Shown here one piece after another: positions 917-20,906 of a stretch of 64,000 nt of DNA (within the stretch, counting starts at the first letter, position 1; the number at the start of each line of letters is the position of its first letter). Both the position numbers and the translations under genes were made by a program. A model generated the notes under the pieces. The model was given only the letters and a program-made list of their open reading frames with translations. It ran no database searches and had not been told where the DNA came from. The DNA lies in contig JAWCPB010000001.1 of NCBI GenBank assembly GCA_038870455.1, positions 3,734-67,733 of the forward strand, written 5' to 3'. Origin of the DNA: Candidatus Micrarchaeia archaeon. GTDB taxonomy: Archaea; Micrarchaeota; Micrarchaeia; Burarchaeales; JACRGF01.

Positions 917-2650
917 TCACCCCGTCCCAAGCATTTTCTTTGACAGCGCATCCACCTTGCCGCACAGCGGGCTTGGAATCATGCGGTCGTTCCTGCCGCC
1001 TGCCGGCACCATGGGCAGCACATCAATCTCGGGGTCTATGACGATGTCAAGCGCGTATATGACGTCGCTCTCAAGGCCCCGCTTTATGGCTTCCTTGAGC
1101 TCGCTGGGCCTCTCCACCCTCTCCCCGTCCCCGCCGTAGCTCTGGAAGAGCTTTATGAAATCAGGAAGCGGGTGCAGTTTGGTGTGCGAGTACCTCTTTT
1201 CCATGAACAGCTTCTGCCACTGCTTAACCATTCCAAGCCATCCGTTGTTGAGTATGCAGATGACTGTCGGCAATCCGTAATGCACGCTGGTTGCAATCTC
1301 TTGGTTCGTCATCAGCACGCTCCCGTCTCCCGCGATGTCTATAACGTGCATATCCGGCCGCGCGGCCTTCACCCCGATGGAAGCGGGCAGGCCGAAGCCC
1401 ATCGTGCCGAGGCCTCCGCTGGAAATGAAGCGCCTCGGCTCCCTCGCCTCCGTGAAGTGCATGGCCCACATCTGGTTCTGCCCCACCTCAGTGACGAAAA
1501 TCGTCTTTTCCCTGGGAGTGTGCAGGTTCAGCTCCTTGATCACTCTCGCAGGATGCAGCGGGGCATTCTCCAGCGCGCCGTAGTTGCAGTTGCAGGCTTC
1601 CTTGAGTTCCCTGCACCTCCTGCTCCACTCGCTTTCCTTCTTCCTGGTCTTTTCCAGTCCAGCGAGTATTGCCGCGAGCGCCTTTTTCGCATCCGCCTGA
1701 ATGGGCACATCGGGCCTCACGTTCTTTCCAATCTCGGCCGCGTCAATGTCGATATGAATTATTTTCGCGTGCGGGGCGAAGTGCTTGATGTCCGCAGTCA
1801 CCCTATCGTCGAACCTGCACCCGACTGCCAGCACGACATCGGCTAGAGTGAGCGCGGTGTTCGCCCCAATCCTCCCATGCATTCCCACGGGCCCCAGGCA
1901 CAGAGGGTGAGTGTCGTCCACCACTCCCTTGGCCATGAGCGTGTAGACAACGGGTGCAAACAGGATCTCGCTGAGCCTCGCCACTTCCTTGTGCGCGCCC
2001 GAGATGATGACTCCCCCTCCGGCAAGTATGACCGGCTTCTCTGCAGAAATCAGCACCTCCACCGCCTTCTTCACCTGAACAGGATGCGGCTCGTACTTCG
2101 GCTGGTAGCCCGGAATGGTGATGGTCTCTGGGTACTCGAACTCAATTTCTGCATTCTGAACGTCTTTAGGCAGGTCAATCGCCACCGGCCCCGGCCTTCC
2201 GGCTGTCGCTATGGTGAAGGCCATCTTCATTATTTTCGGCAGCTCCTCCGGATTCATGACCTTGAAGTTGTGCTTCGTGATGGGCATGGTTATCCCGAAC
2301 ACATCGGCTTCCTGGAACGCGTCGTTGCCGATCAGGCTTCGGATGACCTGTCCTGTCATGGCTACGACCGGCACGCTATCCATGTACGCGTCCGCCAGGC
2401 CGGTAGTCAAATTCGTTGCGCCTGGCCCGCTTGTCGCCACGCACACCCCGACTTTTCCGCTAGCTCTTGCATAACCCTCTGCGGCATGCGCCGCCCCCTG
2501 CTCATGCCTCACGAGATAATGCGTGAGCTCCGGATAGTCGAGGAGCGCGTCGTAAAAAGGCATGATGGCTCCTCCCGGAAGCCCGAACATGTGCTTGACC
2601 TTTTCTCTCTTCAAGGCCTCGCAAATGGCCTTCGCTCCCTTCATCCTCAC
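917..2650 (-). CDS. ilvB: acetolactate synthase large subunit (TPP-dependent)
   Basis: 577 aa. N-terminus KAICEALKREKVKHMFGLPGGAIMPFYDALL, plus the TPP-binding GDG...N region and FAD region. Operon with ilvH. Confidence 0.93.
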   Translation of the reverse strand: MRMKGAKAICEALKREKVKHMFGLPGGAIMPFYDALLDYPELTHYLVRHEQGAAHAAEGYARASGKVGVCVATSGPGATNLTTGLADAYMDSVPVVAMTGQVIRSLIGNDAFQEADVFGITMPITKHNFKVMNPEELPKIMKMAFTIATAGRPGPVAIDLPKDVQNAEIEFEYPETITIPGYQPKYEPHPVQVKKAVEVLISAEKPVILAGGGVIISGAHKEVARLSEILFAPVVYTLMAKGVVDDTHPLCLGPVGMHGRIGANTALTLADVVLAVGCRFDDRVTADIKHFAPHAKIIHIDIDAAEIGKNVRPDVPIQADAKKALAAILAGLEKTRKKESEWSRRCRELKEACNCNYGALENAPLHPARVIKELNLHTPREKTIFVTEVGQNQMWAMHFTEAREPRRFISSGGLGTMGFGLPASIGVKAARPDMHVIDIAGDGSVLMTNQEIATSVHYGLPTVICILNNGWLGMVKQWQKLFMEKRYSHTKLHPLPDFIKLFQSYGGDGERVERPSELKEAIKRGLESDVIYALDIVIDPEIDVLPMVPAGGRNDRMIPSPLCGKVDALSKKMLGTG

Positions 2651-10401: not shown

Positions 10402-10525
10402 AGCCCCGTCGTCTAGCGACCCTTTTTCGTCGAAACGAAAAAGCGTCGACGGAAAAAGGTCGGGCAATGGCCAAGGATTCGAGGCTTTGGACCTCGAGAC
10501 GTCGGTTCGAATCCGACCGGGGCTA
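10402..10525 (+). tRNA. tRNA-Gln (anticodon UUG) with ~51-nt intron in the D-loop
   Basis: Acceptor AGCCCCG (10402-08) pairs with CGGGGCT (10518-24); A1:U72 is typical of archaeal tRNA-Gln. D stem GTCT / GGAT. Anticodon arm CGAGG-CTTTGGA-CCTCG with anticodon TTG at 10487-89. T arm GTCGG-TTCGAAT-CCGAC. Removing 10417-10467 (itself a long hairpin) gives a 73-nt mature tRNA. No encoded CCA. Confidence 0.8.
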
Positions 10526-16004: not shown

Positions 16005-16832
16005 GTGGTTCAAATGATTGATGAGAAAGAATTTGACGCGCTCACGCCCAAAAACCGCCCCTACGCTAGCGAGCCGACTGGCAAACTCGTGAACATGTTT
16101 TTTGCACAGGGGGAGTCTGTGGGGGCGGTCGTTTCAGAGCTCGCGGTCAGGGCAAGAAAGGGGGACAACGCTGCACTCGGAGGGCTTCTCCTGGCTCTCC
16201 AGAAAGAGAACAAGAAGCTGAGCCGGCTGGCTGCTAAGGCGCTTGGGTTGGTCGGCAAGCCCGCGCTCGACAGAATCCTGTCCACCGAACTTCTTGATCC
16301 CAGCAAGCGCGAGGGCAGCGTTAGGGACGCCGCGCTCGCCGCGCTCGCCGAGATAGGCAAAAACGACTGGAACGCGTTCGTCGAAAAGCTGTTCGTCATA
16401 GTGTCTGAGGGCAAGATCTCAAACAATCTGACCGGGCTGATTGAAGCAACCGTGCTCATCGCCCTCGCCACGGAGGAAAAAACCGCCCGCGAGGCCGTCA
16501 GCGCGTTGATGTTCGCATCGGAGCATCCAGAGCAGCTGGTCAGCGCCAACATTTTGGACAATTTGAAGGCTATTGCCGATGCGAGGAAAGAGTTCGAGCC
16601 CTCCGTGGATGACTTCATCAAAGCCAAAGCAAAACGCGAGGAAGAGGCGGCGCGGGAGAAACAGCGGATTCTAGAGAAAAACGCGAACGGCTCTGTGGCG
16701 ATCGCCCGCGTGCCCATAGTCAAAGTGCCGGGAGTGCCGAAAAACGGAACAGTCGTCCCAATCGAAGACGAGAAGCCCGCGGGAAAAGTCGTCCACATCG
16801 AGCAAGCCCGCGCGAGAAAGGCGGCAAAGTAA
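16005..16832 (+). CDS. HEAT-repeat protein, hypothetical
   Basis: Repeated A..ALG.IG / AA.ALG..G units, with a K/E-rich tail. Confidence 0.5.
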   Translation: MVQMIDEKEFDALTPKNRPYASEPTGKLVNMFFAQGESVGAVVSELAVRARKGDNAALGGLLLALQKENKKLSRLAAKALGLVGKPALDRILSTELLDPSKREGSVRDAALAALAEIGKNDWNAFVEKLFVIVSEGKISNNLTGLIEATVLIALATEEKTAREAVSALMFASEHPEQLVSANILDNLKAIADARKEFEPSVDDFIKAKAKREEEAAREKQRILEKNANGSVAIARVPIVKVPGVPKNGTVVPIEDEKPAGKVVHIEQARARKAAK

Positions 16833-16867
16833 CAGGCTTTAATAGTTTCTCCAACAAATTACTTTCC

Positions 16868-17048
16868 GGGCCGGTAGATCAGCGGTAAAACCCTTTTCCG
16901 ACGCTTCGGAAAAGCGTTTACGGAAAAGGTTTCGCGTGAGATCGCCGCCTTCGCATGCCTCTCTGGGATCAGAAAAAGGCGGAGGCCAGGGGTTCAAACC
17001 GAACCGCGGGAACTAGTCCGGCGGTTGGTGAAAATCCCCTCCGGTCCA
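16868..17048 (+). tRNA. tRNA-Ala (anticodon CGC) with three introns (D-loop, anticodon loop 37/38, T-loop)
   Basis: Acceptor GGGCCGG / CCGGTCC with the G3:U70 Ala identity pair. D stems GATC (16877-80 and 16940-43). Anticodon arm CCGCC-TTCGCA[21-nt intron 16956-16976]A-GGCGG. Variable AGGCC. T arm AGGGG-TTCAAA[~36-nt intron 16999-17034]T-CCCCT. The D-loop carries an ~50-nt insert (about 16887-16936). The spliced product is near-identical in its stems to canonical archaeal tRNA-Ala. Confidence 0.75.
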
Positions 17049-17205
17049 CACGCGCTTCATGCGCTCCTTTTGTCAGTAGTTTTCTATGCCGTATGGACTC
17101 GTCTGCCTCCACTTGCCTGGAAGGCATACAAGGAAGAGGAATTCACTCCGCCGAAAATAACGAAATTGCTCTGGCTCACAGCCAGCCATCCCCAGCAAAT
17201 CGTCC

Positions 17206-17478
17206 TTAGGACTTTCTTTTCACGAACAACCCGCACCAGCACCTGCCCCAATTGCTCCACGCTTCCTGTATCTTGAAGTTGCACGGGCACAGGAGCTCCA
17301 GGTCCTTTTGCTTGTCCCCGCTCGTCAGCCTGCACGGGCAGTACTTGAGGCCTTTTGTCTTCTCCAGGGCAAAAACCCCTTTTACAATAAACTCGACGTG
17401 CGCGCTGTCCGGGTTGAGCTCGAAGTCCTTTCCTTCGGTAAATCCCTTGAGGAGCTCAAGCCACTCGATTTCATTCAC
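17206..17478 (-). CDS. ferredoxin:thioredoxin reductase catalytic-subunit-like protein (FTR-like)
   Basis: 90 aa with CPCR...CPC...CWC Cys arrangement, like FTR catalytic chain / FDR. GTG start 6 nt after the stop of the upstream rubredoxin-like ORF, in the same frame. Confidence 0.7.
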   Translation of the reverse strand: MNEIEWLELLKGFTEGKDFELNPDSAHVEFIVKGVFALEKTKGLKYCPCRLTSGDKQKDLELLCPCNFKIQEAWSNWGRCWCGLFVKRKS

Positions 17479-17484
17479 TTGAGC

Positions 17485-17640
17485 TCACCCAGCCACTTGC
17501 TCGATGATCGCCATCGCCTCCTCCTTTGTCACTTCGATGTAGGCGTTTTTCGCCCCGCACGTGGGGCAGATTTCTGGCGGCATGCGGCCCACATGCACGT
17601 CGCCGCAGACGGTGCAGCGGAAGAATTTTTTCGCAGGCAT
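17485..17640 (-). CDS. rubredoxin-like zinc-ribbon protein (51 aa)
   Basis: Manual translation: MPAKKFFRCTVCGDVHVGRMPPEICPTCGAKNAYIEVTKEEAMAIIEQVAG, with CxxC...CxxC. Below the ORF-track length cutoff. A TATA-like TTAAATAAAA lies ~25 nt upstream. Confidence 0.6.
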   Translation of the reverse strand: MPAKKFFRCTVCGDVHVGRMPPEICPTCGAKNAYIEVTKEEAMAIIEQVAG

Positions 17641-17993
17641 GATTTTATATGCGAAAAGCTTTTATTTAACCTTCATGCCTCCTTTTTCTGGTGTGGGGTT
17701 TGCGCGTCAATCTTTTTCAGCGTCAGCCGATTCCAGCCTGGCCGCTGGTCCGATGGGAAAAGGCTGGCGAGGCATGGGATGCCAGCACGCGGCCGGGCGG
17801 AGTTCCTTTCGCCCGCGTGAGCAAAGCCTTCGTCTGTGTGCTTGGTAAAACCGGGGGAGTCGTCGCCTCGTTCATCGACAATGCGCTCTCACTTTCGATA
17901 GATGCTCCTTTTCTGGCCTTCAACGAGCTTTGTCACCTGCGCGTGGCGAAAGCGCACACCAAAAGCGAGCTTCTGCTGCGGGAAGAGGGCTCG

Positions 17994-18248
17994 ATGTACG
18001 GGCAGACAATCAAAATCTGTGCGGATGCCGCTGAACGCGTTTTCAAGAAACTATGGAAGAGCGCGCCCCGGCAGGCTCGCGTCGTCCTGTCCGCGTGGCT
18101 GGACAGGATAGAGCGCCTGAAAGAATGCATTCCGGAAGCCGTAATGCCGAAGTACGACGGGTTTGAAGTGCGTGCGCGCATGGGGCGCGCACTGCCCGCG
18201 AAAGACTTCGCACGCATTCCGCCCTTGCTCGAGCCTTTTGGCGGCTAA
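17994..18248 (+). CDS. hypothetical protein (weak)
   Basis: In-frame ATG inside the GTG-started ORF 17691-18248. No recognisable domain. Convergent 4-nt overlap with ftsZ. Confidence 0.25.
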   Translation: MYGQTIKICADAAERVFKKLWKSAPRQARVVLSAWLDRIERLKECIPEAVMPKYDGFEVRARMGRALPAKDFARIPPLLEPFGG

Positions 18249-19318
18249 ATGTAGTTGATGTCCTCAAGGCCCAGCACGAGCTTCGCGTCCTGCTGCCTCT
18301 CGAGCGGCTTTCCGAGAATCTGCGGCGATGTTATGCCGGTCATTATCGCGGTGACGACGACCTGGTCCTCGAGCTCCGGCGACAGCCTCGCCCCCCAGAT
18401 GACATTGGCGTTCTCGTCGAAAGCCTCGGTCAGCTTCTCCCCTATCGTTGTCGCTTCGCCGAGAGTCAGCGTGGGCGAGCCGGCTATGTGAATGAGCGCG
18501 CCCTTGGCCCCCGTGTAATCCACGTCGAGAAGCGGGTTGGTGAGCGTGCTCTTGACGGCCTTCTCCACCTTGTCGGTTCCCTTTCCCTCCCCGACCGCGA
18601 TCATGGCCACGCCCGCGTTGTTCATGATCGCCTTTACATCCGCGAAGTCGATGTTCACGAGGCTCGGCAGCGTGATGGTGTCGCTTATTCCCTTGACGGC
18701 CTTGGCGACGATCTCGTCCGCGATCTGGAAGGCCTGGTTCATGGGCAGGTTCGGCACGTAGCTGACGAGGCGGTTGTTGTCTATGATGACCACCGTGTCG
18801 CAGATTTTCTTGAGCTGGTCTATTCCCCAGTAGGCCTTTTCTATCCTCGCCCTCTCGAGGCTGAACGGAAAGGTCACCATGGCCACGACAATCGCTCCCT
18901 GTTCCTTCGCCACTTCAGCGATGACCGGTCCGGCGCCCGTGCCCGTTCCCCCGCCCATTCCCGCGCTGAGGAACACGAGCTCGCTGCCAGCCAGCACTTC
19001 CCTCAGACTGTCCCTGCTCGCTTCCGCACACTTCTGCGCTACTTCGGGGAATCCGCCGGCTCCCAGCCCGCGCGTGATGGACTGGCCGATGAGCACTCTC
19101 CTGCTCGCCTCGACAATACGCAGGTGCGTGGCGTCCGTGTTTATCGCAACCGTGTCCGCGCTGCGTATGCCCATTTTCGTGAGGCGGTTTACCGTGTTGC
19201 AACCCGCCCCTCCCACGCCAACCACAGCAATTCTTATCCTGTCGGACGAGGTTGAGGCCTCGGGCTGGGGCTGCCCGCTTCCAAGAACCGAGTTAATCAA
19301 ACTCTCCACTGCCACCAC
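18245..19318 (-). CDS. ftsZ: cell division GTPase FtsZ (paralog A)
   Basis: Tubulin signature GGGTGTG, AVVGVGGAGCN, N-terminal GTPase and C-terminal domains. 357 aa. Confidence 0.95.
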   Translation of the reverse strand: MVAVESLINSVLGSGQPQPEASTSSDRIRIAVVGVGGAGCNTVNRLTKMGIRSADTVAINTDATHLRIVEASRRVLIGQSITRGLGAGGFPEVAQKCAEASRDSLREVLAGSELVFLSAGMGGGTGTGAGPVIAEVAKEQGAIVVAMVTFPFSLERARIEKAYWGIDQLKKICDTVVIIDNNRLVSYVPNLPMNQAFQIADEIVAKAVKGISDTITLPSLVNIDFADVKAIMNNAGVAMIAVGEGKGTDKVEKAVKSTLTNPLLDVDYTGAKGALIHIAGSPTLTLGEATTIGEKLTEAFDENANVIWGARLSPELEDQVVVTAIMTGITSPQILGKPLERQQDAKLVLGLEDINYI

Positions 19319-19378: not shown

Positions 19379-20449
19379 TCACCCGATTATCTCAATGTCG
19401 CCGTACGCCACTTCCTTTGGCTTGTCCTCGAACGGCTTGCCGAGCACGCTCGCGCCCTTCACGCCCGTGACTATGGCGACTATCTCTATCTTCCCGTCAT
19501 AGCCTGGTATGAGGCGCGCTCCCCACTTGACGTTCGCCTTGGGATCCATTCTCTCAGTGATTATCTCGCCTGCCTTTATCGCGTCGCCGAGCGTGAGGTC
19601 GCTTCCCCCGCTTATGTGGATGATCGCCCCGCTCGCACCCTCGAAATCAACGTCAAGCAGGCGGTTCTTAAGCACTCCCTCCGAGGCTCCGGCCACCTTG
19701 TCGGTTCCCTTTCCCTCCCCGACCGCGATGAATCCGACTCCCCCTCCGCCCATGATCGCCCTCACGTCGGCGAAGTCGATGTTGATGAGGCTCGGCTGGG
19801 TGATTGTCCAGACCAAGCCGCCGATGGCCTTGGCGAGAATCTCGTCGGCCACCGAGAAAGCGTCGTTCATGGGCAGGTTGGGCACAAGCTGCACCAGCCT
19901 GTTGTTGTCGAGCACTATGCACGAATCCACCACTTTCCTGAGATTGGTTATTCCCTCGTCGGCCTTGACTCTCCTCGCCCTCTCGAGGCTGAACGGGTAA
20001 GTCACCATGGCCACGACAATCGCTCCCTGTTCCTTGGCGATCTGGGCGACGATCGGTGCCGCGCCCGTGCCCGTTCCCCCGCCCATTCCCGCGCACACAA
20101 ACACGAGGTGTGCATTGGAAAGCTCTTTCTCCAAAAGGTGCCTGTCGACCTCGGCCGCCTTCGCCCCGGTTTCGGGATAGCCCCCGGCTCCCAGCCCGCG
20201 CGTGATGGACTGGCCGATGAGCAACTTCTTGGCCGCCTCATTCACCACGCTCAGGTGCTGCCTGTCCGTATTTATGGCCAACAGCTCGCACCCTTTCACG
20301 CCCGCCCTCACTAGCCGGTTGATGGTGTTGTTTCCAGCACCGCCCACGCCGGCGACCACTATCTTTATGCTCTCGGAGCCAAAGTTTTCCTGAGCTGGCC
20401 CCTGCTCTCCCATAACGCTTTTTATCAAACTCTCCATACTGATCGCCAC
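19379..20449 (-). CDS. ftsZ: cell division GTPase FtsZ (paralog B)
   Basis: GGGTGTGAAP, VAGVGGAGNN. 356 aa. About 55% identical to paralog A by eye. TATA TATTTAAATA at 20468-77. Confidence 0.95.
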   Translation of the reverse strand: MAISMESLIKSVMGEQGPAQENFGSESIKIVVAGVGGAGNNTINRLVRAGVKGCELLAINTDRQHLSVVNEAAKKLLIGQSITRGLGAGGYPETGAKAAEVDRHLLEKELSNAHLVFVCAGMGGGTGTGAAPIVAQIAKEQGAIVVAMVTYPFSLERARRVKADEGITNLRKVVDSCIVLDNNRLVQLVPNLPMNDAFSVADEILAKAIGGLVWTITQPSLINIDFADVRAIMGGGGVGFIAVGEGKGTDKVAGASEGVLKNRLLDVDFEGASGAIIHISGGSDLTLGDAIKAGEIITERMDPKANVKWGARLIPGYDGKIEIVAIVTGVKGASVLGKPFEDKPKEVAYGDIEIIG

Positions 20450-20477: not shown

Positions 20478-20546
20478 CTTTTCGCTCGCCTCTCGGACGC
20501 GCGTGCGCGTGTGCAGCTATAAAAATTGTGCTGCGCAAACCGCCTC

Positions 20547-20906
20547 ATGGCAGCGGAAAAAAATCCTGCGAAAAAATCTTCCGGAAAAATTTCTGAGAAA
20601 GACGTGCTCGGCGCGCTGAAGGCAGTTATCGACCCCGAGATAGGCATTGACATCGTGGATCTGGGCCTCGTGTACGAAATTAAGATAGACGCGGAAAACA
20701 GCGTGCATGTGAAGATGACTCTCACCACTCCCTTCTGCCCGCTGGGACCCATGATTCTCAACAACGCAGAGCGCGCCGTGCAGGGAATCAAGGGCGTGAA
20801 GAGCGCGAAAGTCGAGCTCGTGTTCGAGCCGCCTTGGACTCCGGACAGAATGAGCACGGAAGCAAAAAAATCGCTTGGCTTCACGCAGCCCGCGCAGACC
20901 CCTTAA
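20547..20906 (+). CDS. DUF59/MIP18-family Fe-S cluster assembly protein (SufT-like)
   Basis: Conserved DPEIGIDIVDLGLVY...TTPFCP motif. ATG at 20547 with TATAAAAA ~23 nt upstream. The ORF-track TTG start is 21 nt further up. Confidence 0.8.
   Translation: MAAEKNPAKKSSGKISEKDVLGALKAVIDPEIGIDIVDLGLVYEIKIDAENSVHVKMTLTTPFCPLGPMILNNAERAVQGIKGVKSAKVELVFEPPWTPDRMSTEAKKSLGFTQPAQTP

Follow-up and report, generated by a model that had tools for sequence, protein, structure and literature searches.

The two open reading frames at positions 17206..17640 (minus strand) of the analysed window, by which we mean the whole stretch of 64,000 nucleotides, very probably form a normal bicistronic operon. It would encode a rubredoxin-like (Rd) iron protein and, behind a genuine TGA stop, a stand-alone FDR-type protein that resembles the FTR catalytic subunit. 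That gene 2 starts in the frame of gene 1 is a coincidence; about one in three pairs of neighbouring genes would share a frame by chance, and such adjacency hence carries little weight on its own. We regard the locus as an unremarkable example of a two-gene form of the FDR family that is conserved but biochemically uncharacterised. Its parts are:

17640..17485 (-), Rd-like gene 1, ATG start and TGA stop, a 51-aa ORF with the translation MPAKKFFRCTVCGDVHVGRMPPEICPTCGAKNAYIEVTKEEAMAIIEQVAG
17487..17485 (-), TGA stop codon of gene 1, read from the sequence
17479..17484 (-), intergenic spacer GCTCAA of 6 nt, corresponding to the two in-frame codons GCT CAA
17478..17206 (-), FTR-like gene 2, GTG start at 17478..17476 and TAA stop at 17208..17206, 90 aa

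An earlier note on this DNA had reported a 51-aa rubredoxin-like ORF ending in TGA and, two codons further on in the same frame, a GTG that opens a 90-aa FTR-like ORF. Both ORFs are present, and they match the Pfam families PF21349 and PF02943, respectively. In NCBI the ORFs stand as two separate proteins of a Candidatus Micrarchaeia MAG, on a contig of 85,448 bp: MEM3030119.1 for the Rd-like one (a hypothetical protein) and MEM3030118.1 for the FTR-like one (FTR catalytic domain-containing protein). An exact-protein look-up found no second contig, and the sequence is thus known from a single assembly; scans of genome and metagenome contigs with the read-through sequence gave only distant relatives. 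The G+C content of the window is 58.8%, and in a scan for other interrupted genes this high-GC sequence gave long open stretches in all frames.

Gene 2 encodes a member of the FTR catalytic subunit/FDR family, as shown by its matches in Pfam and, for both sequence and fold, in the PDB. Its product matches PF02943 (FeThRed_B) with E=7.2e-17 and 61.8 bits against a cut-off of 22. The cysteine motif CPC-x14-CPC-x13-CWC (C47PC49, C64PC66, C80WC82) aligns with the motifs of the PDB entries 4tpu and 7pwe, and all six cysteines are invariant in 52 aligned stand-alone homologues. An AF2 model of the 90-aa protein reached a pLDDT of 84.9, and with this model Foldseek retrieved 7pwe (TM 0.73), 4tpu (TM 0.71) and 1dj7_A (TM 0.62). 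The pair does not fit a classical heterodimeric FTR of the plant type: the third motif is CWC and not CHC, and the adjacent gene is Rd-like and not the variable subunit FeThRed_A.

The gene 1 product matches PF21349, the rubredoxin-like domain of rubrerythrin (E=5.2e-11, 42.2 bits, cut-off 26.5). It also matches rubrerythrins in the PDB and, weakly, zinc-ribbon families in Pfam. Two cysteine pairs, C9xxC12 and C25xxC28, are both invariant among 11 aligned stand-alone homologues, and a short C-terminal helical tail follows them. Gene 1 is 52-68% identical to stand-alone Rd genes that lie upstream of FTR-like genes or in oxidative-stress clusters. The 51-aa query itself returned three proteins only, owing to the word-index limit of the search; these are encoded by stand-alone Rd genes beside cupredoxin, SOD or rubrerythrin genes, with no FTR gene. 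Stand-alone relatives of this kind (L002 3001..3147, L008 194..379, L010 400..555) are 64-68% identical over their full length. Genes next to such FTR-less Rd genes encode Fe-SOD and rubrerythrin (L008) or cupredoxin (L009, L010), or are unrelated (L002). Because Rd-like relatives occur without an FTR gene, the small Rd-like protein may serve several partners.

The two-gene reading is carried mainly by the relatives of gene 2. With the 90-aa protein as query we obtained 104 matches, and 84 of the 103 non-self matches were FTR-only proteins, mostly from DPANN archaea. The closest of these have 88-97 aa and are 55-68% identical, many from Woesearchaeota, Nanoarchaeota and Aenigmarchaeota. Of the 20 neighbours at the smallest distance, 19 are stand-alone, and a neighbour-joining tree paired the window protein with a stand-alone homologue (P0134), although this tree, built on about 85 residues, lacks robustness. 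Among 1.84 billion cluster representatives (50%-cluster library), an unbiased scan found 401 matches, the four best being 88-93 aa long. We inspected eight related loci in seven distinct arrangements, listed here with the length of the Rd protein, the junction and the FTR start codon:

L011, Woesearchaeota: Rd 48 aa, junction -8 nt, FTR start TTG
L012, JGI metagenome: Rd about 50 aa (called as 83), junction -4 nt (ATGA), FTR start ATG
L013/L014, JGI metagenomes: Rd 50 aa, junction +1 nt, FTR start ATG
L015, Aenigmarchaeota: Rd 48 aa, junction -4 nt, FTR start ATG
L016, JGI metagenome, 520-kb contig: Rd 47 aa, junction -4 nt, FTR start ATG
L017-L019, three separate ENA assemblies: Rd 48 aa, junction +22 nt, FTR start TTG
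L020/L021, WOR-1 bacterium: Rd present but uncalled by annotators, junction -8 nt, FTR start TTG

At all eight loci a small Rd-like gene (47-50 aa) lies directly upstream of the FTR-like gene, and in every case the two are offset by a frame of 1 or 2. These gene pairs are out of frame and therefore cannot be readthrough products. In the WOR-1 bacterium (GCA_001302785.1) the rubredoxin-like ORF at 2350..2508 runs 8 nt into the start of the FTR-like gene; gene callers thus sometimes miss the small Rd genes of this module. We found no description of a two-gene Rd/FTR-like module in the literature.

The start of gene 2 can be placed by the same relatives. In an alignment of 52 stand-alone sequences, which begin with MN[KE]EEL, Met1 is conserved to at least 90%, and the MNEIEW of the window aligns with these starts residue for residue. 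As the GTG coincides with the conserved Met1, we take the codon at 17478 to be the true start of gene 2.

Around the junction and upstream of gene 1, three further features were noted:

17485..17489 (-), Shine-Dalgarno-like GGTGA that includes the TGA stop and ends 6 nt upstream of the GTG
17449..17490 (-), RNA hairpin with the stem GGG.GAGCUCAAGU / GCUUGAGCUC-CUC, 13 bp, 9 of which form a perfect core, with the U of UGA as a bulge
17660..17669 (-), TATA-like box TTAAATAAAA, taken from the sequence itself, with its centre about 25 nt before the Rd ATG

GGTGA matches the Shine-Dalgarno core complementary to the 3' end of 16S rRNA; the window contains no 16S gene. Of all start-like triplets in the window, 4.8% have a Shine-Dalgarno 5-mer upstream, so that the GGTGA match taken alone is roughly a 1-in-20 chance event. 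Clear Shine-Dalgarno motifs at similar spacing are found upstream of several other window genes. Among the relatives, (G)GTGA(T) or GGTG stands 5-7 nt before the FTR start at L011, L015, L016 and L017, and at L011, L015 and L016 the GGTGA-like motif is encoded by a conserved Rd tail ending in KVM.

Huber et al. 2023 (PMC10666635) regard gene distances of -8 to +10 nt as predictive of termination-reinitiation and find gene pairs in this range enriched in subunits of heteromeric complexes. The +6 nt of the window lies in this range, as do all relatives except the one at +22 nt, and the adjacency of the two genes is conserved. Translational coupling, one of the possibilities raised in the earlier note, is thus plausible, given the 6-nt gap, the Shine-Dalgarno-like GGTGA over the stop codon and the orthologous pairs that mostly overlap by 4 or 8 nt. 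From these sequence features we consider the two genes most likely to be translationally coupled.

The hairpin may add to this coupling. A perfect 9-bp inverted repeat (GAGCUCAAG / CUUGAGCUC), with its arms at 17486..17478 and 17460..17452, begins at the GA of the stop codon. Within the folded stem are buried the stop codon, the spacer, the Shine-Dalgarno-like motif and two of the three GUG bases. Its minimum free energy of -19.2 kcal/mol for 45 nt falls in the lowest 3.2% of 8528 windows (z = -3.26 against shuffles), and the 64 kb contain 18 perfect hairpins of at least 9 bp. The layout fits an occlusion of the gene 2 start until a terminating ribosome melts the stem, but it could also be due to chance, and we give it low weight. 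Start-site occlusion of this type, melted by the terminating ribosome, has also been discussed by Huber et al. 2019 (PMC6728339). As a conserved element the hairpin was rejected, as it is absent from the homologous junctions and present in the window only. A templated mutation in the quasi-palindrome was considered as an origin of the TGA.

The TATA-like box suggests a leaderless or near-leaderless bicistronic mRNA; a sigma-70 promoter scan is inapplicable to an archaeal promoter. Just upstream of the Rd gene and overlapping this box, a 4-codon mini-ORF with a strong Shine-Dalgarno motif (aaaggaggcATGaaggttaaaTAA) lies at 17686..17661 (-), probably by chance. A candidate operon terminator lies beyond the FTR-like gene at about 17185..17154 (-), where a weak stem (CTGGCT/AGCCAG) precedes a T-rich run. 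The roughly 370 nt downstream of the FTR-like gene (16833..17205) contain no ORF with a Pfam match and no Rfam match.

In a second group of relatives, both domains form one polypeptide. With the read-through product as query, 510 proteins were found; nearly all of the best 120 have 138-157 aa and carry PF21349 followed by PF02943, with Aminicenantes, Acidobacteriota and Methanomassiliicoccales among the sources named in these 120. Such fused proteins with an N-terminal Rd number hundreds in the databases. The 144 codons of the window read-through are collinear with them (usually 138-148). The pair may be described, as the earlier note had done, as a split version, namely the two-gene counterpart of fused Rd/FTR-like disulfide reductases. 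Its description of the methanogen FDR as a fusion of FTR and then Rd also holds, since PDB 4tpu has its FTR domain at residues 17-89 and its Rd motif at 137-166. The opposite domain order claimed for the window is indeed reversed with respect to 4tpu; it is not unusual, however, as the order with an N-terminal Rd is common in databases. At two other loci (L003 2447..3261 and L004 1317..2134) the FTR-like gene directly follows a rubrerythrin gene whose product has an N-terminal Rd domain, with an overlap of 1 nt in L003. In both loci the next gene is desulforedoxin-like, and in L004 it is followed by a Fe/Mn SOD gene. This pairing with rubrerythrin is a third way to combine an Rd module with the FDR core.

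A rival reading is that the window carries a gene that was split only recently, or an artefact. An ancestral fused Rd-FTR gene would then have received its linker TGA by a point mutation or by a sequencing or assembly error, which we consider unlikely. Just as unlikely in our view is what would have to follow from it, i.e., that the downstream half survives through a chance in-frame GTG and a Shine-Dalgarno-like motif, or that the gene is simply broken. Some observations do point this way. Both ORFs lie in one frame, no more than two codons apart, the collinearity with the fused homologues extends over all 144 codons, and the sequence stems from a single assembly. The Rd half has its best match in the Rd domain of a fused protein (P0003/P0122; 33 of 40 positions identical), ahead of stand-alone Rd proteins with 29-31 identical positions, and its tail (...EQVAG) aligns with the linker (...EDIAG) of this closest fused homologue. 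In the DNA alignment to the latter, the TGA of the window stands opposite ATA and the GTG start opposite ACG; a TGA arising after GGG would moreover by itself create GGTGA. As the Rd half and its tail resemble domain and linker of a fused protein, a recent split in the window lineage is possible. The gene of the closest fused homologue (L006 5624..6097, archaeal MAG GCA_046761145.1) is located between TrxR-like/ADH genes and a Trx-like gene, and its contig shows no synteny with the window.

Against a recent split or an artefact stands the GTG, which falls exactly on the initiator Met conserved in 51 stand-alone homologues. Among the FTR relatives, the nearest are stand-alone proteins with their own upstream Rd genes, and both halves in the window are complete domains with all cysteines present. 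Furthermore, ACG is one step from ATG, and a fusion that arose from the two-gene state hence fits the alignment at least as well. A single substitution separates the window junction from a fusion. Fused Rd-FTR proteins that keep this domain order are abundant as well, from which it follows that fusion and fission recur in the family. The TGA/ATA and GTG/ACG alignment, together with the likeness of the Rd half to a fused protein, indicates that small changes were enough for the family to move between a one-gene and a two-gene form.

Less probable still is a programmed readthrough of the UGA by some ribosomes, perhaps stimulated by the hairpin, which would yield a 144-aa fused protein in addition to the two separate products. 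The earlier note had raised the possibility that the TGA is recoded or read through, and it had itself looked to the orthologues for an answer: these consistently encode two genes. At the eight related loci each FTR-like gene begins at an ATG or TTG of its own, outside the frame of the Rd gene, and the two-gene clade shows no sign of selection for a fused product. Frames do match in the window, the product would have the architecture of an abundant fused family, and the stop codon marks the beginning of an unusually stable hairpin. This hairpin, however, is not conserved, and as it covers the start codon it fits the occlusion of a ribosome-binding site better than a stimulation of readthrough. 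TGA is moreover the commonest stop in the window, ending 30 of 60 long non-overlapping ORFs, and can thus be taken as an ordinary stop codon there. It falls in the variable interdomain linker, where the aligned position of the fused homologues is not conserved and never Cys, and the region has no Rfam matches. As the window holds the only in-frame pair beside the eight inspected loci and has a strong hairpin at the stop, the UGA might be leaky. We regard it as highly improbable that three products are made, i.e., free Rd, free FTR-like protein and a fused Rd-FTR protein laid out like the mostly bacterial enzymes; if this were true, the family would have at this locus a living intermediate between its split and its fused state.

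Selenocysteine insertion or a genome-wide reassignment of TGA, either of which would make both ORFs one gene, is effectively refuted and retains next to no probability: nothing but the in-frame TGA itself speaks for it, whereas TGA terminates half of the long window ORFs, no conserved Cys lies opposite the stop, a redox residue has no obvious role in an interdomain linker, no tRNA-Sec occurs within the window, and a search for a SECIS-like element in 16800..17720 gave no Rfam match at all (Rfam may not model archaeal SECIS elements).

In the proposed bicistronic operon, a ribosome that finishes the Rd gene would re-initiate at the GTG, aided by GGTGA and possibly gated by the hairpin, and re-initiation would lead to both proteins being made together. 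The Rd-like and the FTR-like protein might then associate non-covalently. The Rd module could pass single electrons, ultimately from ferredoxin, to the Fe-S/disulfide site, and this site would reduce disulfides of thioredoxin- or glutaredoxin-like partners and so contribute to thiol and oxidative-stress defence. Judged by homology and context, the best-supported role of the pair is that of a two-subunit ferredoxin- or rubredoxin-linked disulfide reductase in such defence. FDRs are Fe-S enzymes related to FTRc (PMC6262447, PMC7278568), and the FDR of M. acetivorans is reported to reduce a thioredoxin, given as MaTrx5 in the text and as MaTrx1 in Table 1 of the source (PMC6262447).

At related loci, the Rd/FTR pair or its fused form is found among genes for rubrerythrins, desulfoferrodoxin and encapsulated-ferritin-like proteins. 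Further redox neighbours there include Grx/Trx-like proteins, a TrxR-like flavoprotein, redoxin with DsbD_TM, ferredoxin and pyruvate:ferredoxin oxidoreductase. A motif scan and the neighbouring genes revealed no thiol-redox neighbours and no thioredoxin-like partner in the window; the pair is surrounded by genes for a HEAT-repeat protein, two FtsZ proteins and an Fe-S assembly protein. The FtsZ genes are tandem paralogues of 357 and 356 aa at 18245..19318 (-) and 19379..20449 (-), just upstream of the Rd region, the first with Tubulin and FtsZ_C domains. The only other Fe-S-related gene near the pair encodes the PF01883 Fe-S cluster assembly protein (20526..20906 (+), E=2.8e-23). Farther away, a borderline Rfam tRNA match of 57 nt at 10469..10525 (+), with 29.3 bits at a gathering score of 29 and not found by ARAGORN, could be a false positive or else a tRNA that is atypical, truncated or split.

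The consequences of these results are modest: a recoding candidate is removed. Where fused homologues exist, two neighbouring domain-sized ORFs in one frame argue only weakly for recoding. The FDR-type module recurs with a rubredoxin-like partner in several forms, as a linked gene (DPANN, WOR-1), as an N-terminal fusion and as a C-terminal fusion, and the interconversion of split and fused forms seems to need point mutations only. The two-subunit form may belong to the minimal redox-defence kit of archaea with small genomes.

Among known systems, the DPANN and WOR-1 two-gene modules (e.g., Woesearchaeota GCA_019323515.1 and Aenigmarchaeota GCA_016934325.1) resemble the window in gene order, in sizes (47-50 and 88-97 aa), in identity (55-68% for the FTR half, 52-60% for the Rd half), in the MN[KE]E start and in their tight junctions. 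The window differs by its in-frame spacing of +6 nt, compared with -8, -4, +1 or +22 nt out of frame, by an Rd tail that is 2-3 residues longer and by the stable hairpin, which only the window has. It also lacks the oxidative-stress neighbours seen at most other loci of these modules. The fused Rd+FTR proteins, including the archaeal MAG protein MFQ6135998.1, share with the pair the domain order, collinearity over the full length at 47-57% identity, and the same six cysteines and two CxxC pairs. They are, however, one polypeptide with a linker of 10-20 residues, where the window has a stop and a restart codon. With the coupled pairs of Huber et al. (PMC6728339, PMC10666635) the window has in common a unidirectional gene pair at a distance within -8 to +10 nt, a Shine-Dalgarno motif within the upstream gene or at its end, and products that are likely subunits of one complex; its spacing of +6 nt is less common than -4 or -1.

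Regarding the enzymes of solved structure, the six cysteines in these relatives hold a [4Fe-4S] cluster and form a redox-active disulfide, and the gene 2 protein keeps all six. The FDR of Methanosarcina acetivorans (4TPU) is similar in its domain (E=7e-14), its fold (TM 0.71, 32% identity), its CPC...CPC...C(Y/W)C motif and its associated rubredoxin-type module. In contrast to the separate upstream Rd gene of the window, this module is C-terminal and fused, and the third motif of 4TPU is CYC instead of CWC. In fold, the glutaredoxin/FDR fusion of Desulfotalea psychrophila (7PWE) comes closest (TM 0.73, 33% identity), and it shows that the FDR core is a module joined to different redox partners, its own being a fused N-terminal glutaredoxin and not a rubredoxin. 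The FTR catalytic subunit of plants and cyanobacteria (1DJ7 chain A) shares the Pfam family, the fold (TM 0.62) and the arrangement of the six cysteines with the gene 2 protein, yet is only 16-19% identical, and the classical enzyme has a CHC motif and pairs with a variable subunit.
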